Source: Candidatus Iainarchaeum sp. | GTDB taxonomy: Archaea; Iainarchaeota; Iainarchaeia; Iainarchaeales; VGJJ01 | Length of the DNA: 32,000 nt | Assembly (NCBI GenBank): GCA_030688545.1 | Contig: JAUYHT010000008.1 | Span: 1 to 32,000, forward strand | Reading direction: 5' to 3' | Shown here: positions 451 through 14,594 of the stretch, piece by piece | Layout of the letters: each line of letters begins with the position of its first letter | How positions within the stretch are numbered: the stretch's first letter is position 1 | Made by a program: the position numbers and the translations under genes | Notes under the pieces: model-generated | What the model saw: only the letters and a program-made list of their open reading frames with translations | Databases searched by the model: none | Told to the model about the DNA's origin: nothing

Positions 451-518
451 AACTTTTCTAATTCCAGGATTAGGGCATTCTACAACAGGAATGACCCTTT
501 CCTGATATTTTTCAGTTA

Positions 519-2711
519 TCATCTGAAGGAAAGAAAGTCCCACTTCTCTCCAAGATTTTTTTCATTGAATTCATAATTCTTGCCACCATTGTAGCGGCAG
601 CTTCCATCTTTGAATACAACAATGCCACCATATAGCTTCTTTGAATGCTTTGTATTCTGAGTATCAATATACTTTCGCAGCGCTTCTGCTTTTTCTTTGG
701 CATCTTCTGCAGTGCGACCGCCTTTAGTATCAAATAAACCTATTCGACCATCTTTCATCTGCACAATAAAGTCAACGTAGAAGGAGCGCTCAATGCCCTT
801 AATGTCAGCGTAGGGTATCGCAAAATATTTTATCCCGTTATCTCCGTTTTTGTACCACCATTTAACTTTATTATTATGATCTTCCAGTAGCCCAATAAAA
901 TCCTCTTCGGGTTTTGATTCTTTCCCAGCATAGAATGGTTTCATAATAGATTTGTTCATTGGTTTTTCTTTGAACTTGCTCGTATAACTGATCAGTAACG
1001 GAACGTTCCAAACGAAATGTTTTTTCTCTTTCTTATCCATGACTTTTTCAACGACTTCAAGCCAATATTTTTCTTTTGCTTTGTTCAGTTGGTCGATAAA
1101 AGTTGGGTTATTTTCTTTGCTTAGGATAATCCTCTGCGCAGTTGTATAGTCCAGTATATTGAGTTTATTCTCAAAAAATTTGTATAGCGATGTCTTGATT
1201 ACACGCATTGAGTCAGCCGGAGCGAAAGGGGAAGCTATCAACTTAAGGAATGAGTCAAAGCGTTCTTGTAGCTCACGCTCAGAAATTGCAATTTCTAATT
1301 CGCCACCGTGTTTAACATCCTGAACTTTATCTAATTTTTCAATTTTCCCATCTACTAATATCTCGTTTACCAAGGCAGTTGGTTTCATATTTAACTTTTT
1401 GCTCAATCTATCCTCATTTACAGTATCTTGAAATATACGGGTAAATTCTCCAGAAAGTCGTGTTTTTTCGCGGGCTCTCTTCAAATAAACTGATTGTAGA
1501 TCAACTGGGTTATACAAATCAGTCCTTCGTTTTGCTTCTAACACAGTAATGTAATCTTTCGCAATACCCTCAGCTATTTTTATCTCAGATAAATTAGTGA
1601 ATACATACCCTTTATTCAGACCCTCGCTTTCATAATGGCGCGCTTCAGGCATACGCATGATACGACCAATCGTCTGAATCGAAAAAGTAATACTTTTCCA
1701 GTCACGAAATAGGATAAGAATTGCTGCTCTTGGACAATCCCATCCGAGCGCAATAGCTTGTTTGAATATCATTACCTCAGTTTCATTTTCATTCTTTTCA
1801 ATGTTCTCTAAATTTATCTTATTGTCCTTTTCGGAAAGATATATAGCGAGTTTTCGGTTTTCGGTTGTTATTCCTTGATTTCGAAGAATTGCAATAACAT
1901 CATCCTTCTTGTCATTTGATCCTTGCCGGCTATCCGGAATTTGAATTAAGATCAATGGGTTAACTGCTGAACCTTCACTTCTATATTGCTTCACTAACTC
2001 GGCCTGTTTTTCTAAAGCACACTGAATGACAAACTCATCTGCACTTTTCATGCCGACTTTTTTCTGATCTATTTCAGGATTTATCTGTACTTCATTTTTT
2101 ATCATGCCTTCTTCTTTGACATCTTGAAAATCAACTTCAACTTTGGCATTGATATTTGTTATCTGGGGGGTAGCAGAAACTTCTATTGTAACTTTTGGAT
2201 TAATTAGCTCAATTACTTCTAAAGATTTTGGCGCTTTAGCGCTATGATGACTTTCATCAATAACCAATAAAATATCTCGACCGTTTTCTTTTGTATTTTC
2301 CACAATTTTCGATAAATTATTGTCATACTCATTTTCTCTTATGTAAATATTATCCGCTTTATTGATACTTTGCCAATTGAAAAATAGGATCTCATTTCTT
2401 CCGATCATTCGATCTTCAAGATCTTCGAAATCGGAGCACTTTAATATGCGAGTGTCTTCAAAATAACGCTCGAGTTTGTCCTTGCTTTGGTTATGTAATT
2501 GGTTAACTGAAATCCAAATGAATGCTAAATCTTTCTTTTTCTCTTTTGAAACTGCCAAGCGTTTCAAGAACTCCGCCATCATTATTGTCTTTCCCGATCC
2601 AGTAGGAGCATCAAACACGCAAATTTTGCTCTCAGTGTAGTTGAGTAAGTCACTCACTTCGGCGAAAAGCTTCTTAACAGCTTTTTCTTGATAATCCTTA
2701 AGAGTAATCAT
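519..2711 (-). CDS. res: Type III restriction enzyme Res subunit (SF2 helicase plus C-terminal PD-(D/E)xK nuclease)
   Basis: Helicase motifs: I DAPTGSGKT, II VIDESHH, III SATP, VI QTIGRIMR. C-terminal nuclease-like YVDF...FDTKGG. Lies immediately downstream of mod and overlaps it. ATG at 2711 (MITLKDYQEKAV) follows a GGAG ~11 nt upstream; the longer ORF start at 2735 has no such signal. Confidence 0.85.
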   Translation of the reverse strand: MITLKDYQEKAVKKLFAEVSDLLNYTESKICVFDAPTGSGKTIMMAEFLKRLAVSKEKKKDLAFIWISVNQLHNQSKDKLERYFEDTRILKCSDFEDLEDRMIGRNEILFFNWQSINKADNIYIRENEYDNNLSKIVENTKENGRDILLVIDESHHSAKAPKSLEVIELINPKVTIEVSATPQITNINAKVEVDFQDVKEEGMIKNEVQINPEIDQKKVGMKSADEFVIQCALEKQAELVKQYRSEGSAVNPLILIQIPDSRQGSNDKKDDVIAILRNQGITTENRKLAIYLSEKDNKINLENIEKNENETEVMIFKQAIALGWDCPRAAILILFRDWKSITFSIQTIGRIMRMPEARHYESEGLNKGYVFTNLSEIKIAEGIAKDYITVLEAKRRTDLYNPVDLQSVYLKRAREKTRLSGEFTRIFQDTVNEDRLSKKLNMKPTALVNEILVDGKIEKLDKVQDVKHGGELEIAISERELQERFDSFLKLIASPFAPADSMRVIKTSLYKFFENKLNILDYTTAQRIILSKENNPTFIDQLNKAKEKYWLEVVEKVMDKKEKKHFVWNVPLLISYTSKFKEKPMNKSIMKPFYAGKESKPEEDFIGLLEDHNNKVKWWYKNGDNGIKYFAIPYADIKGIERSFYVDFIVQMKDGRIGLFDTKGGRTAEDAKEKAEALRKYIDTQNTKHSKKLYGGIVVFKDGSCRYNGGKNYEFNEKNLGEKWDFLSFR

Positions 2712-4488
2712 ATTTGAATATTCTCCTATAAACATGCAAAATTACTTCAGGAATTGGCCGTAGTTTCACGCGAGACTTTATTGACTTGAATTCGCTTTCT
2801 GGTACGGAATCGTCAAACGAAAACACGTAAACATTAAACTTTCCGGGAATTTTTTGAACCTCCTTTACAAAATCGCCAATTTTCTCTTCATCGAAAATAA
2901 TTCCCATGAATGTTTTGGGGCTCTTGAAAATTTTGAATCCGTCTTTTTCAAGAACTGGCGAAAAAGAGTTCTCCTTTAAACAAAGCATTTCGGTTGACTT
3001 TTCTACTATTTTACGCTTATTAGCATCAGTTGGCGAAGAATCAACAAAATCAGTTTTGAAATATTTTAGATTTCCGCCTAAGCCATTTATCTTTGAGCCC
3101 TTTAAGTTAGTATAACCTTTAATGGCTTTTTTCATCCTCGGTAAACAAACATCTGTGCAAATATTGCTCTCATTGTTAGTGCAAAGAATGAATTTTCTAT
3201 TTCCACCATCTTGTTTATTCAACTCTAAAACGGCGTGACCGGTTGTTCCAGAGCCAGCAAAAAAATCAAGAATGAGGGGGGACTTTTTTGCAGTGTTTTT
3301 CAGCAAATATTCAATCAATATCGTTGGCTTAGGGTAATTAAAAATCGCTTTGCCCCCATCTTCACCAAATATATCTCTTATTTCTCGAGTTCCATCTTGT
3401 GTGTAAAACATGTTATAGAGAACAGAGCGCATTATCTTTGTCCTTTCTTTGCCAAACGCGTTCAAGAATTGCTTGACCATCGGACGATAGTAGTAGCCAC
3501 GTTGATCCTTTTCTTTCTTGCAATTTATTTTATGCCAAACAATGGTTTTATTCTCAAATTCTTCTTTGGCCCTACTTTCACTAAATCTCCATTGATATCT
3601 CCCACCTTTTGGCCTAATCTCTTTTCCGTCAGGATCTTTTATGGGGTAATACATCGTGCGAATTGGAGTCGGAATGGACTGTTCTAAATCCTTGAGTTTA
3701 TACACCCCGCGAGAATCGTTATCTGGATTTTTGTAAGATTTTAATTCATCTTCGGTAAGTGCCTCTTCGAACCGTTGAATAAACTGAATGTTTTTAGCAT
3801 ACACCAAAACGTATTCGTGGTCTACTACAAACGCTTCTTTCTTCAGGACTTCCTCTGTCGGTTTATTTGGATTTTGCTTACCGCCGCCACCAGCCTTATT
3901 TTTCCAAATCAACATCCCGACATAGTTTTCTGCATTAAATACATCATCACACAATAGCTTAAGCTGCGCTTGCTCGGCGTCATTTATAGAAATAAACATC
4001 ACGCCATCTTTTTTGAGCAAATTTTTTGCTAATCGCAATCTTTTGCTCATGAAGGAAAGCCATTTACTATGGCGGTAGGAATCTTCATCATCAACAATTT
4101 TGTTATTGTAGATGAACTTATCGCCAGTTCCGCTATTGTATGGCGGATCAATATAGATAATATCAACCGACTCGCTATGCGTAAAATTCAGAACAGCTAA
4201 GGCATGATAGTTATCACCTTCAATCAGGACATTGCTCTCAATTGCTTGATTAGTAACAACATCATTACTGAGAATTGACTTCAAAACTGGGAATTTGTGG
4301 TTCGCGTCGGTAAAAGTTTCCTTAGTTTTTATTCCGTCCCAGTTGATGTAATAGTCAAATTTTTCTTTTATTTTATCCTGTTCCCAGACTAATCCATAGG
4401 TTTTTTGTTTCCGCAGCGCTTCAATTTCCTTTACTAAGTCTTCTCTTGTCCAACCGTTATAATCCCCATTTTTTCCACCCATACCCAT
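2698..4488 (-). CDS. mod: Type III R-M Mod subunit, beta-class N6-adenine/N4-cytosine DNA methyltransferase
   Basis: Catalytic motif IV IIYIDPPYNSG precedes the SAM-binding motif I LDFFAGSGTTGHAV (beta permutation). mod-res order with a 14-nt overlap is canonical for Type III systems. Confidence 0.85.
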   Translation of the reverse strand: MGMGGKNGDYNGWTREDLVKEIEALRKQKTYGLVWEQDKIKEKFDYYINWDGIKTKETFTDANHKFPVLKSILSNDVVTNQAIESNVLIEGDNYHALAVLNFTHSESVDIIYIDPPYNSGTGDKFIYNNKIVDDEDSYRHSKWLSFMSKRLRLAKNLLKKDGVMFISINDAEQAQLKLLCDDVFNAENYVGMLIWKNKAGGGGKQNPNKPTEEVLKKEAFVVDHEYVLVYAKNIQFIQRFEEALTEDELKSYKNPDNDSRGVYKLKDLEQSIPTPIRTMYYPIKDPDGKEIRPKGGRYQWRFSESRAKEEFENKTIVWHKINCKKEKDQRGYYYRPMVKQFLNAFGKERTKIMRSVLYNMFYTQDGTREIRDIFGEDGGKAIFNYPKPTILIEYLLKNTAKKSPLILDFFAGSGTTGHAVLELNKQDGGNRKFILCTNNESNICTDVCLPRMKKAIKGYTNLKGSKINGLGGNLKYFKTDFVDSSPTDANKRKIVEKSTEMLCLKENSFSPVLEKDGFKIFKSPKTFMGIIFDEEKIGDFVKEVQKIPGKFNVYVFSFDDSVPESEFKSIKSRVKLRPIPEVILHVYRRIFKYDYS

Positions 4489-4630
4489 AGTGCAGTATTT
4501 TCGGGTATTTTAATGATTCGAAAGAAGCCAACGTTTTGAGACGTTTACAAAAGATGACTTTATTTAGCGCAAAATTTACTCCAAAAACGATGACCAATTT
4601 ATATATACCCCACTACTAAAATCTTCTCAA

Positions 4631-5614
4631 ATGACATCAAACCTCAAAGATGACATAATGAATTGGCTAACGGACCGGGACTATAATCACAAATTACGTG
4701 GGATGAAGTTGCTGCAGGATCTGACAATAGCTGTCGTTCTCCTGATTTTATTCTTTGCAATTTTCCCATTTGCCGCTCAATTAAACCAAGACCCAGTAAT
4801 CTTCTTCAGAATTGGGGCAGTAATTTTATTGGCAATATTATTCTTTTCTCTTAAATTTTTTCATAAGTCCTACCGCAATGCAGCTTATGGATTCAAAGGA
4901 GCACCAAATTTTGTAAAGGTGTTGCTCCTAATCTTCGTGCTACTTGGGGCACTCTATCTATTCCAAAATCAAAAAATAGTTGGCGGAATATTTAATGAAA
5001 AAAACAAAGATGAATTAATTGACAAACTAAATCCAATCTATTTTTCGAATACAATAACTGCCAAGAACAACTCATCCTCATTAGTTAGTACATCAGATAG
5101 CCATCCAGGATTAGCTGAATATGTTGGTGGAACTATCAGCACAGCTCAAGAGGTACAGCAAGAGTTATTTCCACCACCCAATATCGATGAAATTGAAAAG
5201 ATAGTCTTTGAAAAAACAAACGCATTGAGGGGCAAAAAGCTCATTTGGAGCCCTAAACTGGCACAAATGGCCCGAGCGCATAGCCAGGATATGGCACAAA
5301 GAAAATACTTTGCCCACGATTCTCCCGAAGGATTGAGCCCATCTGATCGAGCCAAAAAGATTGGACTTAGTGAATATGGAATAGCAGAAAATATCGCTCA
5401 AGCACAGTACGGAAGCCTCTACTGCGGAGACAACCCCGTTATGACCGTTTCAAACGATGAAGATGTGGCCACGTGCGCAGTAAATGCATGGATAAAAAGC
5501 CCAGGCCATTACGCTAACATGATCGATCCCGAATTTGTTGAAATTGGGGTCGGAGTCGCATACGATGGAGAAGAGTTCTATCTAACTCAAAACTTTAGAG
5601 TACCTTACGACTGA
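4631..5614 (+). CDS. Multi-TM membrane protein with C-terminal CAP/SCP/PR1-like (YkwD-type) domain
   Basis: N-terminal hydrophobic helices. C-terminal AHSQDMAQRKYFAHDSPEG...ENIAQ...WIKSPGHYANMIDPEFVEIGVGVA matches the CAP-domain signature. TTTATATATA box ~28 nt upstream of the ATG suggests a leaderless transcript. Confidence 0.7.
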   Translation: MTSNLKDDIMNWLTDRDYNHKLRGMKLLQDLTIAVVLLILFFAIFPFAAQLNQDPVIFFRIGAVILLAILFFSLKFFHKSYRNAAYGFKGAPNFVKVLLLIFVLLGALYLFQNQKIVGGIFNEKNKDELIDKLNPIYFSNTITAKNNSSSLVSTSDSHPGLAEYVGGTISTAQEVQQELFPPPNIDEIEKIVFEKTNALRGKKLIWSPKLAQMARAHSQDMAQRKYFAHDSPEGLSPSDRAKKIGLSEYGIAENIAQAQYGSLYCGDNPVMTVSNDEDVATCAVNAWIKSPGHYANMIDPEFVEIGVGVAYDGEEFYLTQNFRVPYD

Positions 5615-5619
5615 ATTTA

Positions 5620-6132
5620 TCACAAAAATCCACTTCTTTTTAGCTGATCGCGCGCTGGATTCTTCGGATGATTCATAAATATATTCTCTAACTGAAAGAA
5701 AGCATTTTTTCCATTTTCAACCACTTCGCGCGCAAGCGTACGAACACGCTCATCAATTTCTTTTTGAGTCTTGTATTTATCCCACCAACTATTCTCACGA
5801 TCAAAAAGAAGATTGTACTCTCCATGAATTTCGTGGGCCATTACATTCCTATCATTTTTGAACACAATTATGCTCTCATTCAACGTATCAGGGATATCTC
5901 CTTTTTGATGAAGGAAATTCAAATGCTCTTTACCACTAACTGGCTTCCCACTTGGATGTTGTGTTTTACGCTCTCCATATAGGGCCGACATGTAGAGTAG
6001 ATTGTTGTCGATAAAAGCATCAGCGATTGCAGCAGCCTCAACAAAATAGCCTTTCTCTAATGGATCATCAATTTGATCCGAGTTTGTAGCAAGGCCATAC
6101 GCTTTTGGTGGGTGAAATATTACTTTGCGCAT
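5620..6132 (-). CDS. Hypothetical cytoplasmic protein, HEPN-like (RNVMAH = Rx4H motif)
   Basis: 170-aa helical-looking protein with no signal peptide or TM segment. FKNDRNVMAHEIHG at aa 91-104 fits the HEPN Rx4-6H motif, with a polar residue after the Arg. Last gene of a co-directional 4-gene cluster. Confidence 0.4.
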   Translation of the reverse strand: MRKVIFHPPKAYGLATNSDQIDDPLEKGYFVEAAAIADAFIDNNLLYMSALYGERKTQHPSGKPVSGKEHLNFLHQKGDIPDTLNESIIVFKNDRNVMAHEIHGEYNLLFDRENSWWDKYKTQKEIDERVRTLAREVVENGKNAFFQLENIFMNHPKNPARDQLKRSGFL

Positions 6133-6150
6133 ATGAAATACACAATCGAA

Positions 6151-6681
6151 TTATGCAGGAATTACGACATCTCTTCCAGTTGCCGGGCCGCATTCTTCGC
6201 TTGTTTGAGCATTATCTCCAGTGACAATAAACTTCACGTCGCCCCCACCCCAATAGCTTTCTTCATGCCAGTCAAATGTTTTTTCTACCGTTGAATGCGC
6301 AGTAATTGTCCCAACCGGATAAATCTTTGAAGTTCCGTAATGCCATTTTATTTCCTGACTAACCTTTTCCATATCCGTCTTGATTGTCACAACCACATTT
6401 TGTATATCTGCATCATTTGAATTTTTGAAAAGCATTTTGATTGTATAGCTGTGCTTGATTTGACCATAACCGGACTGCTCTTCTGTTCCATTTACAGAGT
6501 CTGATGGAAAAATGCATTCAAGAATTGGAAGCGATGGTTCATTTTTTGGAATAGGATTGTTATCTTCAATTTGTTGCACTGTTTGCTGGGGGGCTTGCTG
6601 AGGAATATTTTCCTGGACTGTTGAATTAACACATCCAACTGAGAGAATCACTAAAAAGAGTGCTCCCAAAAGCAATTTCAT
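6151..6681 (-). CDS. Putative lipoprotein / secreted beta-rich protein
   Basis: N-terminus MKLLLGALFLVILSVGC looks like a signal peptide with a lipobox-like Cys, followed by a Q/P-rich linker. Its start overlaps the stop of the upstream gene (6678-6681). Confidence 0.6.
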   Translation of the reverse strand: MKLLLGALFLVILSVGCVNSTVQENIPQQAPQQTVQQIEDNNPIPKNEPSLPILECIFPSDSVNGTEEQSGYGQIKHSYTIKMLFKNSNDADIQNVVVTIKTDMEKVSQEIKWHYGTSKIYPVGTITAHSTVEKTFDWHEESYWGGGDVKFIVTGDNAQTSEECGPATGRDVVIPA

Positions 6682-7871
6682 TCGGAAACACCATTGATCG
6701 CTTCTTCAAAATAGGGATATTGATATGCCCCTACGATGAACTTTGTTCCTTTAGTTCCTCGAATAAAGAATGAAGGTGTTCCTTCAACTCCTGCATCGAT
6801 TCCAACATCGTAATCGGCAGATATTACATCATCGTATTTTCTGCTTTCATAGCAGGTAGAAAACTGCCCCTGATCCAATCCCAATGATTCTGCCAAGGAG
6901 TAGAATTTTGCTTGGTTAAATGTCGGATAATTTTTGTATAAGAGGTCATGCATTTCCCAGAATTTTCCCTGTTCAGCTGCGCATTCAGCCGCATTTGCAG
7001 CTATTACTGCATTGTCATGAAAGCTCAAAGGAAAATGGGCAAATGCGAATCTTGCCTTTCCCGTGTCGATATACGTGGATTTAATTTTTGGCCAGGTATT
7101 CGAGTAAAAGTTATTGTTGAACGTATCGTCAAAATCGCCAAACTGCACAATCCACATCTGAGCATTTTCGTTCCCGATCCAATGGCCCGAGATGGATTTT
7201 ATATTCAAAACTTGGTCTTCGACAATAATTTGGTTCTCATTTGTTTCTCGCTTTTCGGTTTCAGCAATTTGCTTATCAATCGCGTTGATGATCGCATCAT
7301 ACGCATTGATGAGTGTTAAAACGCCTAATTCGGTTCGATGTTGAATTTTATCCGCTATCTCTTTAGCGGTCACAAAATTACCCCTATTCTCTTTCATCTC
7401 GGCAATATAGTTTTCCTTGTCTTCTTGAGAAAAACTAAGACTCGTATACTTTTCATTCAGAGAAATTTTTAGATCCTGTTCAATTCCGATAAAGAAGTAA
7501 TCGAGGGAGCGGTAATAGGTGTTCATGTCGGCCTTTAGCGATTGGTCATAGAAGGGGGCATTCGTTACTTTCGCTAATTGTATTTCAGCCTCCCGGAAGC
7601 CGTTTTTTACTCTTGGAAGGAGATCAAGAGCATCCGAATAGTCACCCTGCTCATACTTGCCGATTAAGCGTCCAAACTCATAATTAGCATTTTCCTCATA
7701 GGCTACCGCAGTTCCATAATCCTTAAACGATTGTAAGAGTGCCGTATTTTGAGCTTCGACATCTTTCAGATCTGAAGAAGCAGAAAAATATTGATAGGCG
7801 AAAATGGCTGCAACGATGACCAAAATTCCAATGGCTGCCAAATAGAGTACCTTTGATTCTTGACCTTTCAT
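6678..7871 (-). CDS. Membrane-anchored DsbA-family thioredoxin-fold protein lacking the CxxC active site
   Basis: Single N-terminal TM segment, then a ~200-aa helical ectodomain. The C-terminal domain matches the DsbA/Thioredoxin_4 pattern (IVQFGDF....F...TGKARFAFAHFPL..H..A..AA.AAECAAEQGKFWEMHDLLY...VEGTPSFFIRG). The position that is normally CPxC reads DDTF. Confidence 0.7.
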   Translation of the reverse strand: MKGQESKVLYLAAIGILVIVAAIFAYQYFSASSDLKDVEAQNTALLQSFKDYGTAVAYEENANYEFGRLIGKYEQGDYSDALDLLPRVKNGFREAEIQLAKVTNAPFYDQSLKADMNTYYRSLDYFFIGIEQDLKISLNEKYTSLSFSQEDKENYIAEMKENRGNFVTAKEIADKIQHRTELGVLTLINAYDAIINAIDKQIAETEKRETNENQIIVEDQVLNIKSISGHWIGNENAQMWIVQFGDFDDTFNNNFYSNTWPKIKSTYIDTGKARFAFAHFPLSFHDNAVIAANAAECAAEQGKFWEMHDLLYKNYPTFNQAKFYSLAESLGLDQGQFSTCYESRKYDDVISADYDVGIDAGVEGTPSFFIRGTKGTKFIVGAYQYPYFEEAINGVSE

Positions 7872-8278
7872 TTCTTGTCCCCCTTTACACCTATTTTATA
7901 ATCACCGGCATATTTTTTTCCAAAAAAATACATGCCTCCAATTAGAACTACTCCAATAAGACTCCAAACAAAAAAGCCGGAGAGGGCAACTAAAGCGGCC
8001 TCACCCCAGCGCTGTTGAGCACCCAGCCAATAGTTCAACTTAAACAGCAAAACAAGGGCAATGATTGAGAAGGCGAGTAAAAGGACCTTTTCAACAATCC
8101 AAAGCATGTCCGGAGAAAGCTCAATGTACCCCGAATATTTTACAAGCCCGAGCAAGACGGAGTATACAGCAAAGGCAATAATCACAGGGATGTATGTCCA
8201 AAGAAATGGATGGCTGAACCTCTCCATATCGGCCTTCGCATATGCGGGGCCTTTACCGAATAAGCTGTTCAGATTCAT
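7868..8278 (-). CDS. Hypothetical integral membrane protein (3-4 TM segments, no cysteines)
   Basis: ORF track; strongly hydrophobic segments. Its stop overlaps the start of the DsbA-like gene (ATGA at 7868-7871). Confidence 0.6.
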   Translation of the reverse strand: MNLNSLFGKGPAYAKADMERFSHPFLWTYIPVIIAFAVYSVLLGLVKYSGYIELSPDMLWIVEKVLLLAFSIIALVLLFKLNYWLGAQQRWGEAALVALSGFFVWSLIGVVLIGGMYFFGKKYAGDYKIGVKGDKK

Positions 8279-8353
8279 TTTTTGTTATCCTTCCAAAATC
8301 GTACATAATGGGCATATTTAAGGATTGGTTCTGGCCGCTAAGTCTTTACGGCG

Positions 8354-8608
8354 ATGTCGCGGGACCGATCAAAGGTATATAAAGAAATGAGCTGGAAGCA
8401 TGTTATGAGCATAGTAGAAAAGGTGGCTATCATCGTTATTGCAGGGTTGGCCTTCTGGGGCATTTCCGGCTTTGCAAAAGATTTCTTGATAGATAGTGGG
8501 TGGAAAGCATCCGATGCTTCATTTCCCGCCCTGCTAATTGCATTGGGCTTTCTAATTGTGGTTGGTGGCGGAACGCACCTTGTTCTAAATTTATTTGGAA
8601 ATAAGTGA
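8354..8608 (+). CDS. Small hypothetical membrane protein (84 aa, 2 TM segments)
   Basis: ORF track; two hydrophobic helices. Divergent from the 7868-8278 operon. Confidence 0.5.
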   Translation: MSRDRSKVYKEMSWKHVMSIVEKVAIIVIAGLAFWGISGFAKDFLIDSGWKASDASFPALLIALGFLIVVGGGTHLVLNLFGNK

Positions 8609-8633
8609 CTTTTCTGTATTCATCGAACTCAAA

Positions 8634-8757
8634 AGAGGCAGTCTTAAATCTTTAGCGCACGTAAAAGTCTATACAAAAGTCCAGAAAAGAAAACGCTCTT
8701 CAACACGAAGTTCTAATCACGGCCCCCGCTTATAACTTACAGTTGAAACGCGGTTTT
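8634..8757 (+). repeat. Structured intergenic repeat, copy A (conserved 5' module plus 68-nt imperfect hairpin at 8690-8757)
   Basis: 8634-8731 aligns with 10229-10325 at roughly 85-90% identity by eye. Hairpin arms are aaaacgctcttcaac and gttgaaacgcggtttt, with inner pairing aagtt/aactt. The loop contains ggcccccgc. Confidence 0.8.
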
Positions 8758-8829
8758 GCAGACCTGTTGAAATTTTTGATTTGTTTTCAGTATGGGAACG
8801 GTTTTATTCTTGAGGCGTTCATTTTGATT

Positions 8830-9339
8830 ATGGTTTTACTCGCTTCTTATCGTTCGCCAAAAGTACGAGTTTTAAATTCAAGTAACATTGATAAAAAGGG
8901 TATTTTTGCAATTGCGAACATTTCAGAAGGGGAAACTGTTTTTGTAAAAGCTGGACATATCGTTGATAATCAAACAGCTAAAGAATTAGAAAATAAGTTA
9001 GGAGAATACTGTCTTCAAATATCTGATAATCTAAATCTTTGCCCAACCACAAAAAAGGAAGTAAAAGAAACTGCTATCTTTGTCAACCATTCATGCGACC
9101 CCAACATTGGACCACGCGGACAAATTGTTTTCATTGCCATACGCAACATTAAAGCCGGTGAAGAACTGTGCTATGACTACGCCATGACAACAGCACGACA
9201 ATACAATCTGAAATGCGAATGTGGAACACGAGTATGTAGAAAAAAGATAACTGGAGAGGATTGGAAAATTAAATCACTCCAAAAAAGATACAAAAATCAT
9301 TTTTCAGACTTTATTCTTCAAAAAATAAAAAAGCAATAA
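8830..9339 (+). CDS. SET-domain protein lysine methyltransferase with post-SET Cys cluster
   Basis: NHSCDPN, GEELCYDY and post-SET CECGTRVCRKKI motifs. The first in-frame ATG is at 8830; the track ORF begins at a TTG at 8743, inside repeat A. Confidence 0.8.
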   Translation: MVLLASYRSPKVRVLNSSNIDKKGIFAIANISEGETVFVKAGHIVDNQTAKELENKLGEYCLQISDNLNLCPTTKKEVKETAIFVNHSCDPNIGPRGQIVFIAIRNIKAGEELCYDYAMTTARQYNLKCECGTRVCRKKITGEDWKIKSLQKRYKNHFSDFILQKIKKQ

Positions 9340-9354
9340 ACTAACGACTCACCA

Positions 9355-9465
9355 AAAAGAGTTAAATACTTTGAATAACACTTTACTTAAGTCCAGAAAG
9401 CACCGCGCTTCAACGCGGAGTTATAGGAACGGCCCCCGCATAAAGCTCTATGTTGAAACACGGTG
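9355..9465 (+). repeat. Structured intergenic repeat, copy B (more diverged; hairpin at 9401-9465)
   Basis: Shares aaaagag..ttaaat..cttt, gtccagaaa, cttcaac, ggcccccgc and gttgaaac with copies A and C. Hairpin arms are caccgcgcttcaac and gttgaaacacggtg. Confidence 0.7.
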
Positions 9466-9469
9466 GAAA

Positions 9470-10168
9470 TCATTCGAACGCTGGAAGAGAAGATAAGGGT
9501 CGGGAAGTATCCCCATAGTAATCTTCCCAATTGATCATGGCTTGCTTTAGGGTGTCCTTATTTTGCATCTCAGGAGGGATTACCAATTCAAAAGAGGCAG
9601 TGAATGGGATGTCAACTGTTTTTGAATAACTACATTCTTTTGCTGGATATTTTGTTGCGCATGAGGGTTTTTTTAGGAGATAAAAAATTTTAGTTACACG
9701 AGCTGAAAAATTTCCACTCACTACTCCATTTGAATAGTCTGAAAAAGAAATACTATTTGAAGCGAGCGTATTGGAAGAATTGGTTCGATCAATGGTGATC
9801 CGCGTTTGTGCAAAATAATCCCCATCCTTAAAAGTGGGTAATTCAATAATCAAATCCGCTACATTCAGGGATTGGTTAATTTGCTTAACTGAAAATGGGA
9901 ACATTTCTTGTGGATTCAGAATAAATGTCAAACCGCCCTTATTTTCTCCATCCGCATAGGAATAGTTTAACACCAATGTTTCATCTATTGCATTAAATGT
10001 AAAATTCGGGGCAGTATTTTGTGGAGTAAAAGAAAAATGAATTTCATTATTTGAAGGAATAGTGTTGAACAAAGAAACCGCTATACTCACTACCACAATG
10101 AACAAAACTAATGCCCCCATTTCGAAAATTCTGTTAGACACCATACTATTCTTTGGGGATAATCTCAT
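9470..10168 (-). CDS. Hypothetical N-terminally anchored or secreted protein (232 aa)
   Basis: N-terminal hydrophobic anchor GALVLFIVVVSIAVSLF followed by an N/S/T-rich ectodomain. TTTAAATA box (minus strand, 10190-10197) lies ~26 nt upstream of the ATG. Confidence 0.6.
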   Translation of the reverse strand: MRLSPKNSMVSNRIFEMGALVLFIVVVSIAVSLFNTIPSNNEIHFSFTPQNTAPNFTFNAIDETLVLNYSYADGENKGGLTFILNPQEMFPFSVKQINQSLNVADLIIELPTFKDGDYFAQTRITIDRTNSSNTLASNSISFSDYSNGVVSGNFSARVTKIFYLLKKPSCATKYPAKECSYSKTVDIPFTASFELVIPPEMQNKDTLKQAMINWEDYYGDTSRPLSSLPAFE

Positions 10169-10228
10169 GATTTTTGAACAATATGAAACTATTTAAAGGT
10201 TGGTTACGGCCGATAACAAGATGCAAAT

Positions 10229-10340
10229 AGAGGCAGTATTAAATCTTTAGCCAAAATAAAAATCTATACAAAAGTCCAGAAAAAAAACGCTCTTCAACAC
10301 GAAGTTGCAGGAAAGGCCCCCGCTTGTTTTACTATTGAAT
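10229..10340 (+). repeat. Structured intergenic repeat, copy C (5' module intact, 3' hairpin arm degraded)
   Basis: Near-identical to copy A through ggcccccgctt. The 3' box reads attgaat instead of gttgaaa, and outer pairing is weak. Confidence 0.75.
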
Positions 10341-10404
10341 GTCGACAATGCCCAAAACCCTGAGAAATTTAGTCAAGGTCGGATTCCAGGCCCTTTCAAA
10401 AGGG

Positions 10405-10530
10405 CTACGGCGTCGTGCTAAATGTATACAAGAATAGAACTAGATTAAAATAAGCCCAAACATAAGCGATTGCAACGCCAAAAATGCCAATTTGAACGAC
10501 TTGCAACAGAATCCTTTTGACACGGTTCAT
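10405..10530 (-). CDS. Possible 41-aa single-TM micro-protein (below the ORF-track cutoff)
   Basis: My translation: MNRVKRILLQVVQIGIFGVAIAYVWAYFNLVLFLYTFSTTP*. The stop codon overlaps a 6-bp hairpin, gccctt-tcaa-aagggc (10390-10405). No other support. Confidence 0.25.
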   Translation of the reverse strand: MNRVKRILLQVVQIGIFGVAIAYVWAYFNLVLFLYTFSTTP

Positions 10531-10744
10531 AGATATTTCTCCAATTGCTCCAAACTCTTTTCCACGGATACTTACTTGAAATCATTTAAGAAAAGCGATA
10601 AATCTGTGTGCTTATCTACCAGTTCTTTTGCCAATTTTTCATCCCGATTGTTTGGAATAAACCACTCATTTTATCAAATTATAATCCTTGTGGTGCAACA
10701 GACTATTTGCTATCCCAACGCTTGCAGGCAATGATTCTTTCTTT

Positions 10745-11143
10745 TCATACATTCACCTTGTACACTTTTGGAAGGGTGCCAAAGTCCGAGTCGGCCGTTA
10801 CTAATGCGGCATCGGACGCGAGTGCGGATTGGTAAATTATACTATCCACGGTACTCAATTTGTTTTTTACACACCATGTCACGGAATCAACCGCAATATC
10901 CTCATCCACCATCACTACAGCGCTATTTTCCCGCATAAAACGCATGGCTTCCCTGACGAAAGATGGGTTATTCAGTCTTCGGCTTAAAATTTTGGCTACT
11001 TCATGAAACGAAAGGGTGGATGTGAATATTTTTCCTTCTGGCGAATCGACTAATTGTCCTATCTTCTCCTGGGACTGGAGGAAGTAATCCAACCAGATAT
11101 TAGAGTCGAAAAACAATCGATTATCGGTCGCGGTCACGTTCAA
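10745..11143 (-). CDS. vapC: PIN-domain ribonuclease toxin VapC
   Basis: Acidic PIN residues in the expected order: FFDSNIW, FHEVAKIL, TVDSIIYQSA, TADSDF. Overlaps the upstream antitoxin gene by 23 nt. Confidence 0.8.
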   Translation of the reverse strand: MNVTATDNRLFFDSNIWLDYFLQSQEKIGQLVDSPEGKIFTSTLSFHEVAKILSRRLNNPSFVREAMRFMRENSAVVMVDEDIAVDSVTWCVKNKLSTVDSIIYQSALASDAALVTADSDFGTLPKVYKVNV

Positions 11144-11339
11144 CCCTCAGCTCTTTCAGTATTTCCTTCATTGAAATAGGGTTTTCCGCATCCTCAAATG
11201 CCCCATGCATGGATTTTCCCTTCTTCTGAATCAGCTTGTTGATTACCTGGTCATAGGTTTTCACGTGGTACGCCCCCTTGAGTGAGTCAAGGAACTTTTT
11301 GGTTTTCTGCTGGATTTGGATCGTTGTGGTTCCATCCAT
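11121..11339 (-). CDS. vapB: VapB-type antitoxin (putative RHH/CopG-like)
   Basis: 72 aa. N-terminus TTIQIQQKTKKFLDSLK resembles an RHH beta-strand plus helix; acidic/basic C-terminus. Overlapping position directly upstream of vapC. Confidence 0.65.
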   Translation of the reverse strand: MDGTTTIQIQQKTKKFLDSLKGAYHVKTYDQVINKLIQKKGKSMHGAFEDAENPISMKEILKELRVERDRDR

Positions 11340-11433: not shown

Positions 11434-12081
11434 GTGCGCTCCTTTGTCCCGATCGGCTATATAAAGAATGAAAAGCACATACTGCTTGTGAAGCCTTCCA
11501 GATTATTTACCGCCATAGGGAAACTTAACACCCTCAAGCATCGCCAGCGCAGAGGATGGGTTGTCCGTGGGGTAAAAGGGGCCGAAAGCGTGGCCGATCA
11601 TGCGTGGCGGAGCGCGGTCATCGCCCACCTCATCGCGCCCAAGGGATACGATCGCCAAAAAATGCTCCTCATGGCGCTCCTGCACGATACGTCCGATATT
11701 TATGGCCCTCATTATATCCCCACAGATTATATTACTAAGGAAAATAAGTTTTCGCAGGAACGCAAGAGTATGAAACGATTTGTCCAGCTCCTCCCTGGAA
11801 ACGAAGGGGAAAAGTGGCTTGGGCTGTGGGAAGAGATGGAGAACCAATCCTCCAAGGAAGCCAAATTAGTGAAGGACGCGGAGATATTGGACATGCTCTT
11901 CCAGGCGTTGGAATACCAGAAAGCAGGGAATTTCAAGAAGGACCTGACAGAGTTCTGGGCGCGAGACATTAAACGATTGACTACTCCCCCTGGAAAGAAA
12001 TTAGGTTTGGAAATCAGTCGGCAGTGGCCCAAGGCGGCGAAGAAAAGGTTTGATGCCAAAAAATACACGTACCATTATTGA
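11434..12081 (+). CDS. HD-domain phosphohydrolase (YfbR/HDDC2-like 5'-deoxynucleotidase family)
   Basis: RRGWVVRGVKGAESVADHAWRSAVIAH plus LLHDTSDIY (HD signature). The start is uncertain. A TATATAAA box at 11458-11465 lies ~27 nt before an in-frame GTG at 11488, so a leaderless start there is plausible. Confidence 0.75.
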   Translation: MRSFVPIGYIKNEKHILLVKPSRLFTAIGKLNTLKHRQRRGWVVRGVKGAESVADHAWRSAVIAHLIAPKGYDRQKMLLMALLHDTSDIYGPHYIPTDYITKENKFSQERKSMKRFVQLLPGNEGEKWLGLWEEMENQSSKEAKLVKDAEILDMLFQALEYQKAGNFKKDLTEFWARDIKRLTTPPGKKLGLEISRQWPKAAKKRFDAKKYTYHY

Positions 12082-12162: not shown

Positions 12163-13257
12163 CTATTTTTTCAGGAACTTTTCCAAATACCACCAGAACA
12201 GAATCTTGTACGCCAGCAGGGACGCATGAACCTCGATGAGGGGCGAAAGGACATTTTTACTATTGTATTTCCCGGATGGTTTACGGAGCAAGGGGGCAAT
12301 TTCGGTGATGTCAAATCCCACGAGAATTGATTTTTGTGTCTTGCATTGCTGGAGGATGGCAAACAAAACCTCCTGCAAACTTTCCATGCGCAAACCAAGA
12401 GGGAGGGGAGTCCCCGTGCCGGGAACGAGGGGGGGATCCAGGACATCCATGTCCAGGGAGATATACACGTATTTGGTTTTGATACTTGAGAGGATCATCC
12501 CCATTTGGGACGGGGAAATGAGGCCATTCATGATCATGTTGGACGGGGAGAATAGTCCTTTTTTCGGGGCATACGTCGTGTAAAAGGCCAATGGCTGGGT
12601 GGCGCAGAAGAAAATGGTTGATTCCCATTTGTTCTCACGGATGAAATCCGCCTCCTCCGAAGAAATGTGGTCGCGAATACCAATGTGGACCATGGGAAAT
12701 CCTTTCTTGCGCGCATTATGCATCACGGAGGCATGGGAATATTCCTGCGCGTCATAGGCTTCCCGCATATCCAGGTGGGCATCGAAATGGATGATGGTCA
12801 CATTTTCAGCGCCATGCACCTCATCCAGGGCGTTCAGAACTCCATTAGTGATGGAATGGTCGCCCCCTATTACCATGAGGAGCTTCTCGTCTTTCAAAAT
12901 CTTTTTGGATATCGTTTGAACACGTTTTACCATTTCCTGGGTTATTTTTTTGATCTCCAGCCACGCCCGTTTCTTCTTGATGGCCTTGGATACGTCGCGC
13001 GGACATTCAATGATACCCGCATGATGCACTTTCACTTTTTCAGAGAAATCCGTATGAAAATAAGGGACTTCCGTCTCAATCTGGAAGGACGCATCCAGGA
13101 AAGCCTGGGGGCCCAACCAGGCTCCTTTCCCATACGTGCACGTGATATCGCACGCGACCCCCACCATCACCACCTGGGCGTCCGAATAGGTAAAATTGGA
13201 ATTGAAGTTAGCAAATGTCTTGGATGGCAACCGCTTGAGAGAGGGAGATGGAATCAT
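12163..13257 (-). CDS. speB: Agmatinase / ureohydrolase family protein
   Basis: Mn-binding motifs VIGGDHSITNG, IIHFDAHLDMRE and SLDMDVLDP. The track ORF extends to 13479 but that part overlaps the upstream gene. ATG at 13257 (MIPSPSLKRL) lies 4 nt after the upstream stop. Confidence 0.8.
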   Translation of the reverse strand: MIPSPSLKRLPSKTFANFNSNFTYSDAQVVMVGVACDITCTYGKGAWLGPQAFLDASFQIETEVPYFHTDFSEKVKVHHAGIIECPRDVSKAIKKKRAWLEIKKITQEMVKRVQTISKKILKDEKLLMVIGGDHSITNGVLNALDEVHGAENVTIIHFDAHLDMREAYDAQEYSHASVMHNARKKGFPMVHIGIRDHISSEEADFIRENKWESTIFFCATQPLAFYTTYAPKKGLFSPSNMIMNGLISPSQMGMILSSIKTKYVYISLDMDVLDPPLVPGTGTPLPLGLRMESLQEVLFAILQQCKTQKSILVGFDITEIAPLLRKPSGKYNSKNVLSPLIEVHASLLAYKILFWWYLEKFLKK

Positions 13258-13261
13258 ATCA

Positions 13262-14473
13262 TTACCGCCCCATCCACGCGTTCTTAATAAGCCCGCCCGC
13301 CGACACGGGCCTACTCTCCTTTTCAGATGGGAAAAATAAGTGGGATAGGTCCTGCGACAAAGCGGGTTGGGTGTCCGCTCGGCAAAGCAGTCTTTTCCAG
13401 ATAGGTTTGATGTGCATGAGAGCGCGCGCTCCTTCGGGAGAAGGATGGCGTTGAAGATGGGTCTGAAGACGATGATCATAGGCGGATAAAGATGCCCGAG
13501 AAAAATCCGCGCGGGAATAAGCTTCCCAAATGGTTTCCCCCGCCATCCAACTGGAGGTTAATGCATCCCCTATTCCCATCCCTGAGAATGAATGGGCGAC
13601 CCCCGCCGCATCCCCAATGAGAAGGGCCCGGTTGAACACCCGTGGACGAGAACTCCCACGCAGGGGAATAACCTGTTCCTCCCAACCAGAAGAAAGGGAG
13701 TTGGGGGAGGAAGGGTGGGTCCATTCAAATGTACTCATCCATTTCTCCATCCATTCCACCAGATCCACGCGGTGGCGATCCATCCAGACAGGTGAAACGC
13801 AGGCGCCCACCGACACCTGGCCTTTTTCCAGGGGAACCATCCAAGTATAACCAGGACCTAATTCCTCATGGAAATGGATGTCTCCTTGTTTCGATTCAGT
13901 TGGGGAAGATGAAACAATTTTTTGCACCCCCATCATGGTGTGCCAGGCTGGATTTTCGAGCCCCCCTAATGACCGCGCCACTTCTGAAAAAGCCCCATCG
14001 GCCCCCACGACCATATCGCACGTCACGGTGCGGACTTGTCTCGTGGAAAGATCGGCGAGGCGCACCTCCACTTTATCTTGGAGAACATTCACCCCGGTGA
14101 CCTGCACCGATTCCCTGAATTCACACCCTTTGGTGGCATGTTCGAAAAGGATGTTATCCACCTGCTTCCGTGGGACGGAAGCCATGGCCAAATGAGGCGT
14201 AGTCGGCCGGTGGGCCGATTCCCATTCCTTCCCTTCATGGAAGAATGCCAACCCCTCTAACGAGTGGGCTCCCTTTTCAACCACTTTATCCCACACTCCC
14301 AATCGGGATAGCACATCCATGGCCTCCGGTAAAAGAAGGGCTGCTTTCCCCGTATCGCGGGGAAAAATGGATTTGTCCACGAGGAGCACGCGCAAACCCT
14401 TATCCCCTAGAAGGCGGGCACACGCACTCCCGGATGGTCCGGCTCCGCTCACCACTACATCATAGTCCTGCAT
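13262..14473 (-). CDS. FAD-dependent oxidoreductase, geranylgeranyl reductase family
   Basis: Rossmann motif YDVVVSGAGPSGSACARLLGDKGLRVLLVDK and downstream LIGDAAG. ATG at 14473 (MQDYDVVV) is preceded ~27 nt upstream by TTTATACA on the coding strand. Confidence 0.7.
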   Translation of the reverse strand: MQDYDVVVSGAGPSGSACARLLGDKGLRVLLVDKSIFPRDTGKAALLLPEAMDVLSRLGVWDKVVEKGAHSLEGLAFFHEGKEWESAHRPTTPHLAMASVPRKQVDNILFEHATKGCEFRESVQVTGVNVLQDKVEVRLADLSTRQVRTVTCDMVVGADGAFSEVARSLGGLENPAWHTMMGVQKIVSSSPTESKQGDIHFHEELGPGYTWMVPLEKGQVSVGACVSPVWMDRHRVDLVEWMEKWMSTFEWTHPSSPNSLSSGWEEQVIPLRGSSRPRVFNRALLIGDAAGVAHSFSGMGIGDALTSSWMAGETIWEAYSRADFSRASLSAYDHRLQTHLQRHPSPEGARALMHIKPIWKRLLCRADTQPALSQDLSHLFFPSEKESRPVSAGGLIKNAWMGR

Positions 14474-14594
14474 ATACCCCTCGACTCCCGAAAAGATGTA
14501 TAAAGGCAATGTGAGGGGACGAATGAAACTAGGCCCGGGGGAAATGGTTTATAAGCATTCTTCAGGGGGTTTGATTTAGAAATAGGTGATTCTC

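Follow-up and report, generated by a model that had tools for sequence, protein, structure and literature searches.

HEPN domains are recognized by an R-x4-6-H motif with a polar residue (N, D, or H) after the arginine, and by an acidic residue that is conserved in helix 2 (PMC3710099). In bacteria, solo HEPN/Abi families sit embedded in restriction-modification (R-M) operons (Anantharaman et al., 2013, PMC3710099). The genomes of DPANN archaea are reported to harbor few known defense systems and to be enriched in compact single-gene ones (PMC12988326). Here, we describe a four-gene cluster with a HEPN-like gene from the DPANN archaeon Candidatus Iainarchaeum sp. (assembly GCA_030688545.1, contig JAUYHT010000008.1). 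It lies at 5620–8278 of the analyzed window, which comprises positions 1 to 32,000 (32,000 nt) of the forward strand. An earlier note, made from the sequence alone, had read the cluster as a sensor-plus-effector defense system that couples envelope proteins to a HEPN RNase. The comparative data rather favor a composite, to which we assign a probability of about 0.6: HEPN-encoding defense or mobile-element cargo is transcribed behind three lineage-specific envelope orphans, and the four genes do not form a dedicated four-part system.

The HEPN-like protein is encoded by the last gene of the cluster, gene 4 (5620–6132, minus strand; 170 aa, cytoplasmic). Its family shares several traits with the solo Abi-type HEPN families (Abi2/AbiD/AbiF, AbiU2, AbiJ, and Ymh). 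Both consist of small stand-alone proteins with an R-[N]-x3-H motif, both are encoded inside or beside R-M operons, defense islands, and mobile elements, and for both a function as back-up RNase or in abortive infection is predicted. However, the gene-4 family shows no above-threshold match to the Pfam families of the solo Abi-type proteins, and it was found only in DPANN among the named genomes, whereas the solo Abi-type families are mainly bacterial. A feature of its own is a conserved N-terminal beta-hairpin together with a GYFxEA...DAxID helix. In structural comparisons, the best matches of the gene-4 model are the HepT toxins of MNT-HepT (type VII) toxin-antitoxin (TA) systems (5yep, 6m6u, 7bxo) and the minimal HEPN proteins TM0613 (1o3u) and AF0298 (2hsb), and weak HepT-like Pfam matches cover the motif. 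Gene 4 differs from MNT-HepT, however, in that no MNT gene is adjacent, sequence identity amounts to just 10–14%, and the Foldseek E-values are not significant.

The gene-4 family and its genomic settings

The gene-4 product has no transmembrane (TM) segment and no cysteine, and carries the sequence RNVMAH at residues 95–100. A word-indexed homolog search returned only the query itself. Exhaustive phmmer comparison with 1.84 billion representatives yielded 18 matches, 16 of which are true full-length relatives with 26–36% identity; the matches P0131 and P0139 are beta-repeat surface proteins that share only "D[KR]NVTAH" and were rejected as spurious. In an alignment of the 17 family sequences (gene 4 and the 16 relatives), R95 and H100 are invariant at a spacing of 4 (R-x4-H), N96 is conserved in at least 90% of the sequences, and F91 and K92 are nearly as conserved, giving the family motif FKxxRNxxxH. 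E32 is also invariant; it lies inside the conserved GYFxEA...DAxID segment and in a predicted helix (residues 30–50). Gene 4 thus shows the sequence features of HEPN proteins: the R-x4-6-H motif, a polar residue after the arginine, and an upstream acidic residue. Met1 is invariant across the alignment and backs the annotated start codon.

An AlphaFold2 (AF2) model of gene 4 built from the family alignment (predicted local distance difference test, pLDDT, 89.3; predicted TM-score, pTM, 0.82) shows a beta-hairpin at the N-terminus and a bundle of helices. Helix 82–100 stops exactly at H100; in HEPN domains, too, the R-x4-6-H motif is located at the C-terminal end of a helix (helix 3). When this model was compared with the PDB by Foldseek, the top matches were nearly all HEPN or HepT proteins with probabilities of 0.8–0.98, but every E-value was 0.16 or worse. 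At this level of significance, the matches include the HepT toxins 5yep, 6m6u, 6m6w, and 7bxo, and also 1wwp. TM0613 (1o3u) was matched with a probability of 0.98, a TM-score of 0.69 by target, and a root-mean-square deviation (rmsd) of 3.6 Å, and AF0298 (2hsb) with a probability of 0.96, both with E-values that are not significant. Five family members show sub-threshold Pfam matches (HepT-like, HepT-like_2, HEPN_Cthe2314, and HEPN_Apea) in consistent register over the motif, the best of which is HEPN_Cthe2314 (E = 1.9e-4; 21.9 bits versus a cut-off of 27.1). A sixth sub-threshold match, Hypoth_Ymh in P0133 (residues 128–170), lies downstream of the motif. Gene 4 itself has no Pfam match even at E-values up to 10, phmmer against PDB sequences gave nothing useful, a search of the viral structures in BFVD gave nothing, and the family is absent from Pfam, NCBIfam, PHROGs, and PADLOC. 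Based on the invariant R-x4-H, the confident model with HEPN/HepT proteins as its top matches, and the weak HEPN Pfam matches over the motif, gene 4 probably encodes a HEPN-superfamily protein, an assignment that is supported by motif and fold and not proven statistically. The description of the 170-aa protein as HEPN-like in the earlier note, which had drawn on the RNVMAH sequence, agrees with this fold comparison despite the weak E-values. The family is small, sparse, and previously unannotated, and represents a new family inside a known HEPN kind.

A HEPN-like fold need not imply catalysis, and gene 4 might instead encode a non-catalytic helical protein, such as an MtlR/YggD-like regulator or a binding subunit, and neither a toxin nor an RNase. 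The Foldseek list indeed includes proteins of the MtlR/YggD type (3c8g, 6kcr), no sequence match to a characterized RNase is significant, and some relatives occur in housekeeping contexts. However, the arginine, the histidine, the polar asparagine, and the upstream acidic residue are invariant or nearly so despite identities of only 26–36%, a pattern that characterizes HEPN families with catalytic activity (PMC3710099). In addition, defense and mobile-element contexts predominate among the relatives, and we consider a non-catalytic gene 4 very unlikely. As part of the favored composite, gene 4 would function as a stand-alone, metal-independent HEPN RNase, an activity predicted from its family. 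Its active site, probably shared between the two subunits of a dimer like that of other HEPN enzymes, would comprise R95, N96, and H100, helped by the invariant E32. RNA cleavage by this enzyme might stop the growth of an infected or plasmid-invaded cell and would then be a second line behind the neighboring R-M system. Besides such a back-up or abortive function, gene 4 could alternatively serve as an addiction-type toxin.

The genomic settings of the family were surveyed at 22 further independent loci on genome and metagenome contigs. These loci (L numbers below) were collected by exact-protein look-ups and with a degenerate DNA pattern (F-K-x2-R-N-x3-H-x3-G-E-[YF]), the matches of which were filtered by the family hidden Markov model (HMM). 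Most pattern matches had arisen by chance, including many in Flavobacteriaceae and one Micrarchaeota locus (L025), and were removed by the HMM. The named genomes among the 22 loci all belong to DPANN (Woesearchaeota, two Nanoarchaeota, and Candidatus Iainarchaeum), and one unclassified archaeon adds to these. At three loci the gene-4 relative is inserted between hsdM and hsdS of a Type I R-M operon: the order is HsdM-HEPN-HsdS-305aa-HsdR in L079 and HsdM-168aa-TM116-HEPN-HsdS in L087, and in L007 HsdM-HEPN is followed by an HsdS-like N-terminus. A C-terminal fragment of a TaqI_C/Type IIG protein overlaps the start of the HEPN gene in L052 and apparently likewise in L110. Other relatives are accompanied by an upstream OLD/GajA-like ATPase-TOPRIM protein (L031), a PD-Lambda-5 A/B pair beside the HEPN gene (L005), a Type I R-M system and a Card1-like gene within 5 kb (L006), an NgoPII restriction endonuclease with a C5 methylase about 3 kb away (L038), or a UvrD/PD-(D/E)XK helicase-nuclease directly upstream (L094). 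Integrases or a Prim-Pol primase adjoin the gene or are found near it in L001/L002, L004, L058, and L077, and L056 contains genes for Bro-N and Fic.

The gene-4 relatives thus travel as cargo of R-M operons, other defense genes, and integrated elements. Their repeated insertion into the hsdM–hsdS interval, and at other loci their proximity to OLD/GajA-like, PD-Lambda-5, or integrase genes, makes the family a candidate compact defense system, of the single-gene type that DPANN genomes are reported to favor (PMC12988326). As antiviral defense in DPANN is poorly charted, it is a concrete candidate that could simply be added to the catalogs of defense genes. PADLOC-DB 2.0 gave no match for three gene-4 relatives or for genes 2–4 of the cluster. 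Neither in the window nor at the loci of the relatives does an MNT (NTP_transf_2-type) antitoxin gene adjoin gene 4 or its relatives.

Two of these loci deserve separate mention. L052 is a small defense island of an unclassified archaeon. At a distance of about 3 kb from its gene-4 relative, it contains a classical MNT + HEPN pair (2707–3805, minus strand) that forms a module of its own, and it also encodes a DUF2779/Cas4-like protein. In L077, a 158-kb contig with 51% GC, the relative (470–1024) adjoins an integrase and an Orc1/Cdc6-like gene. It is devoid of the conserved N-terminal third with the beta-hairpin and the GYFxEA helix, and the copy may be in decay.

Organization and recurrence of the cluster

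Upstream of gene 4, the cluster comprises gene 1 (7868–8278; 136 aa, a cysteine-free membrane protein without close relatives in the collections searched), gene 2 (6678–7871; 397 aa, a TM-anchored protein with a helical ectodomain and a DsbA-fold domain), and gene 3 (6151–6681; 176 aa, an orphan that is secreted or carries a lipobox-like sequence), all on the minus strand. The sequence shows ATGA start/stop overlaps between genes 1 and 2 (7871–7868) and between genes 2 and 3 (6681–6678), and genes 3 and 4 are separated by a spacer of 18 nt (ttcgattgtgtatttcat, 6150–6133). The layout reported earlier, with four minus-strand open reading frames (ORFs), two 4-nt overlaps, and one 18-nt gap, was found in full. 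Coding sequence on this one strand accounts for 2641 of the 2659 nt of the cluster. When the region was shuffled 2000 times, a stop-free stretch of at least 170 aa arose in 0.4% of the shuffles and one of 397 aa in none. Moreover, all four genes display a coding-like codon-position GC content (GC1 0.48–0.53, exceeding GC2 at 0.31–0.36). ORF length relative to the shuffles, GC1/GC2 bias, and coding density together identify genes 1–4 as real genes and not chance ORFs.

Judging from the tight spacing, genes 1–4 probably are co-transcribed in the source genome. A promoter and terminator scan of the cluster produced counts equal to the shuffle expectation, with a scan model of bacterial type that is wrong for archaea. 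Inspection by eye revealed a near-palindromic TATA-like box (TTAAATAT/ATATTTAA) at 8314–8321 (8321–8314 on the minus strand) in the divergent intergenic region of 75 bp upstream of gene 1 (8279–8353). This box is roughly equidistant from two start codons, that of gene 1 (about 40 nt) and that of a divergent gene coding for an 84-aa protein (about 37 nt), and may represent a bidirectional archaeal promoter shared by these two genes. Ahead of gene 4, no convincing TATA box or Shine-Dalgarno sequence was seen by eye.

The same packing is an argument for the sensor-plus-effector reading of the earlier note. In such a system, the three envelope proteins would register surface events, such as virus attachment or damage to the envelope, and would switch on the HEPN RNase in the cytoplasm. 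An island that also holds R-M and TA genes, the HEPN-like nature of gene 4, and the close linkage of some membrane-protein gene to the HEPN gene at nine of about 23 family loci would also fit such a system. However, tblastn of the island proteins against the 22 other loci recovered the HEPN gene and, in L004, a CAP-domain protein, but no homolog of gene 1, 2, or 3. The four-gene arrangement was therefore found at none of the 22 loci, an outcome that the earlier note itself had named as speaking against its reading. A concatenated query of gene 1, the N-terminal domain of gene 2, and gene 3 also found no relatives in 185,579 species-representative genomes, JGI metagenome contigs, and IMG/VR, in a search with exact 8-residue seeds that detects close relatives only. 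The view that the cluster is not a cataloged system is borne out, as PADLOC recognizes none of the four genes. Furthermore, the junction to gene 4 is the only one without an overlap, gene 4 recurs alone in R-M operons, and nothing indicates a route by which a signal would pass from the 3-TM protein encoded by gene 1 to gene 4. A sensor-effector system built from all four products thus appears quite improbable, and any interaction among these products would have to be inferred. The lack of recurrence and of PADLOC matches instead marks the coupling of envelope genes to a HEPN gene as a one-off arrangement in this window. What can be retained of the proposed defense module is the placement of gene-4 relatives in defense islands and mobile elements, whereas its unity as one system of four genes is lost. 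Genes that are tightly packed in an acquired island should thus not be taken for a "system" unless their arrangement recurs.

A smaller unit could nevertheless be hidden in the cluster, namely a two-gene module of the HEPN gene and a variable small membrane protein that acts as antitoxin, anchor, or membrane-disrupting co-effector. In the window, the slot of this partner would be filled by the envelope genes or by gene 3 alone. A precedent for HEPN-membrane coupling in defense is Csx28, a membrane-associated HEPN accessory protein of Cas13b systems. In Csx28, however, the TM helix and the HEPN domain form one polypeptide that works with Cas13b, whereas the window has separate, unrelated genes and no CRISPR context. 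A gene with a TM segment or signal peptide overlaps the HEPN gene, or lies within 50 nt of it on the same strand, in the window and in L005, L006, L031, L052, L054, L056, L074, and L087. The TM gene of L087 was inserted between hsdM and hsdS together with the HEPN gene. A smaller first set had shown TM-containing products for 7 of 14 tight neighbors (p = 0.04). In the enlarged set, TM genes make up 9 of 23 tight co-directional neighbors, compared with a background of 25% TM ORFs at the same loci (p = 0.11; census based on crude gene calls and on TM prediction by hydropathy only). The enrichment is not significant, and the adjacent TM proteins show no detectable pairwise similarity; a conserved partner family of the HEPN proteins was rejected on these grounds. 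In addition, the partners occur on either side of the HEPN gene, and no such partner is present at L007, L079, L001, L038, L057, and L094. A two-gene module is therefore unlikely. A more elaborate version would regard the HEPN family and a fast-evolving membrane partner as a two-component abortive-infection module of DPANN. The partner would have expanded in the window into a three-gene envelope sensor, with the redox-dead DsbA fold of gene 2 as the extracellular binding domain that reports to the cytoplasmic RNase. This scenario is decidedly improbable.

The favored composite, in which genes 1–3 would precede gene 4 on the transcript of the source genome by chance, has to be weighed against several observations that speak for a different outcome. 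The very tight packing, with two 4-nt overlaps and an 18-nt gap, also fits a functional unit. The 8-residue-seed scans leave room for distant homologs of genes 1–3, and hence for distant recurrences of the arrangement. No HEPN match of gene 4 is statistically significant, with Foldseek E-values of at least 0.16 and all Pfam matches below the gathering thresholds, and the family profile finds no HEPN protein among the PDB sequences. Finally, a minority of the relatives have housekeeping-like surroundings, comprising L057 (where the gene is flanked by an AlaX-like gene and a HAD hydrolase), L008, L054, and L074. Because of these relatives, a role of the gene-4 family in defense would not be universal.

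The three envelope proteins

Genes 1–3 are regarded as lineage-specific envelope orphans. Gene 1, which had been described as a cysteine-free polytopic membrane protein with three or four TM segments, indeed contains no cysteine and, according to hydropathy, three hydrophobic segments (residues 28–46, 61–79, and 95–113). Gene 3 starts with a hydrophobic N-terminus (residues 4–22) and has a signal peptide (MKLLLGALFLVILSVG, followed by C), a Q/P-rich linker, and a domain of about 120 aa that contains Cys56 and Cys164; its remaining cysteine is Cys17. It had earlier been classified as a lipoprotein, and its lipobox is putative. The signal peptide ends in Cys17 (...VILSVG-C17) with G at position -1 and V at -2, but the residue at -3 is a non-canonical S where the lipobox pattern used here ([LVI][ASTVI][GAS]C) demands L, V, or I. 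Gene 1, gene 3, and the N-terminal 220 residues of gene 2 have no credible match in Pfam, NCBIfam, PHROGs, and PADLOC. Weak matches of gene 3 to Pilin, DUF7284, and phrog_23485 are sub-threshold and were judged to be noise, and a PADLOC match of gene 1 with 11.6 bits was considered spurious.

Gene 2 is the only one of the three with a recognizable domain. It contains a TM helix (residues 4–29), five long helices (35–212), and a DsbA-fold domain (about 225–393). Pfam assigns the region 227–392 to Thioredoxin_4 (8.9e-23) and DSBA (7.6e-12). In an AF2 model, the DsbA domain has a pLDDT above 90 and the five-helix region is of moderate confidence. Foldseek matches the DsbA domain to alpha-DsbA1 of Wolbachia, BdbD of B. 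subtilis, and DsbA/TsdA of C. diphtheriae (E about 1e-8, rmsd 1.6–3.6 Å), and a thioredoxin fold with helical insertion is evident from both Pfam and Foldseek. With these DsbA-family oxidoreductases gene 2 shares the fold, the cis-Pro loop (T365-P366, invariant across the aligned homologs), and a second, structural pair of cysteines (C297 and C340, which align to ...ARC... and ...NSC... of the homologs). It differs from them in three respects. First, D249-T-F-N252 falls on the catalytic C-P-F-C of 4pwp and 7uno in HMMER alignments; among the 119 closest homologs, CxxC occupies 272 of the 289 motif sites, so that its loss is unusual. Second, an orphan five-helix ectodomain is inserted between the anchor and the DsbA fold. 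All homologs cover just about 40% of the protein, corresponding to the DsbA domain, which leaves the helical ectodomain (about 180 residues) an orphan. Third, a DsbB/VKOR partner is missing: in the cluster, gene 1 is the sole polytopic membrane protein, and it has no cysteine and no family match.

Since the CXXC motif is replaced by DTFN, the DsbA-fold domain of gene 2, as judged from its sequence, cannot catalyze thiol-disulfide exchange and would be unable to oxidize thiols. The protein was previously described as a TM-anchored helical ectodomain with a redox-dead thioredoxin fold, and the confident DsbA fold with DTFN in place of CXXC matches this picture. A literature search for CXXC-less DsbA-like proteins of archaea produced nothing pertinent. 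At most, the domain might be a binding or holdase module, and one may speculate that its substrate is the disulfide-capable product of gene 3. The fusion of a redox-dead DsbA fold to a helical ectodomain without relatives among the DsbA homologs is a minor curiosity and illustrates how thioredoxin folds can be repurposed at the archaeal surface.

These properties also bear on the idea that genes 1–3 form an ordinary DsbA-type module for envelope biogenesis or redox chemistry, with gene 4 as an unrelated neighbor. The strong DsbA fold of gene 2, the two extra cysteines in the gene-3 product, and paired cysteines in other secreted or membrane proteins of the island (the CAP-domain protein and a 232-aa protein) are in line with this idea. 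However, with DTFN instead of CXXC, thiol-disulfide chemistry is impossible, and gene 1 is not a DsbB/VKOR-type re-oxidase because it has no cysteine. Moreover, the three genes belong to an acquired island of low GC content, and the searches for close relatives returned no orthologs, which is the opposite of a conserved housekeeping module. An ordinary redox module is thus extremely improbable, and a composite of envelope orphans and HEPN cargo remains the favored reading.

The low-GC island and the rest of the window

The cluster is part of a region (about 500–11,100) with a GC content of 35–42% (about 38%), whereas the remaining window has 47–57% (about 53%). From this break and from its gene content, the low-GC island appears to have been acquired horizontally, and it may extend to the left past the edge of the window. 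The R-M and TA genes that had been placed in the island are present, as a Type III mod/res pair and a PIN/VapC gene. The Type III pair occupies 519–4488 on the minus strand (res 519–2735, mod 2698–4488; Pfam ResIII and N6_N4_Mtase) and is matched by the PADLOC models MTase_III (1.5e-86) and REase_III (1.7e-17). In the res product (738 aa), only the helicase half fits REase_III, with residues 67–385 approximately aligned to models of 809–898 positions, and the nuclease region at the C-terminus may have diverged or become reduced.

Between the R-M pair and gene 4, a plus-strand gene (4631–5614) codes for a CAP/YkwD-domain protein with a 3-TM anchor. It is convergent with gene 4 and ends 5 nt from the gene-4 stop codon. 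The CAP-domain protein recovered in L004 (34% identity, E = 1e-13) is encoded in an integrated element at 6567–7961, about 2 kb from the gene-4 relative; with two cases only, this proximity to the gene-4 family may be a coincidence.

On the other side of the cluster, the 84-aa protein divergent from gene 1 (8354–8608) is a 2-TM membrane protein. SET-domain methyltransferases are uncommon cargo of prokaryotic islands, and one such protein (8743–9339, plus strand; Pfam SET 8.2e-16) with a cysteine cluster at its C-terminus is encoded next to it. The island also encodes the 232-aa protein mentioned above, which is anchored. A VapC-like PIN toxin gene (10745–11143, minus strand) overlaps an upstream ORF of 72 aa (11121–11339, minus strand), which has no Pfam match and likely represents the antitoxin. 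This pair coincides exactly with the GC boundary on the right-hand side of the island and is adjoined by an HD-domain 5'-deoxynucleotidase-like gene (11434–12081).

The high-GC part of the window represents archaeal core genome, with genes for aRF1, L10e, Dph2, aIF2-alpha, TruD, and PAC2. No tRNA and no match to an Rfam family was found in the window. Two minus-strand ORFs at 12163–13479 (438 aa) and 13262–14509 (415 aa) share 218 nt. The 438-aa ORF, which resembles arginase/agmatinase by eye, is probably not translated in its upstream part, and the true start of this gene is probably further downstream. The aRF1 gene (18758–21514, plus strand; 918 aa in total) is split by a large LAGLIDADG intein with Intein_splicing, two LAGLIDADG_3, and HTH_3 domains, which is flanked by the eRF1 domains 1, 2, and 3.

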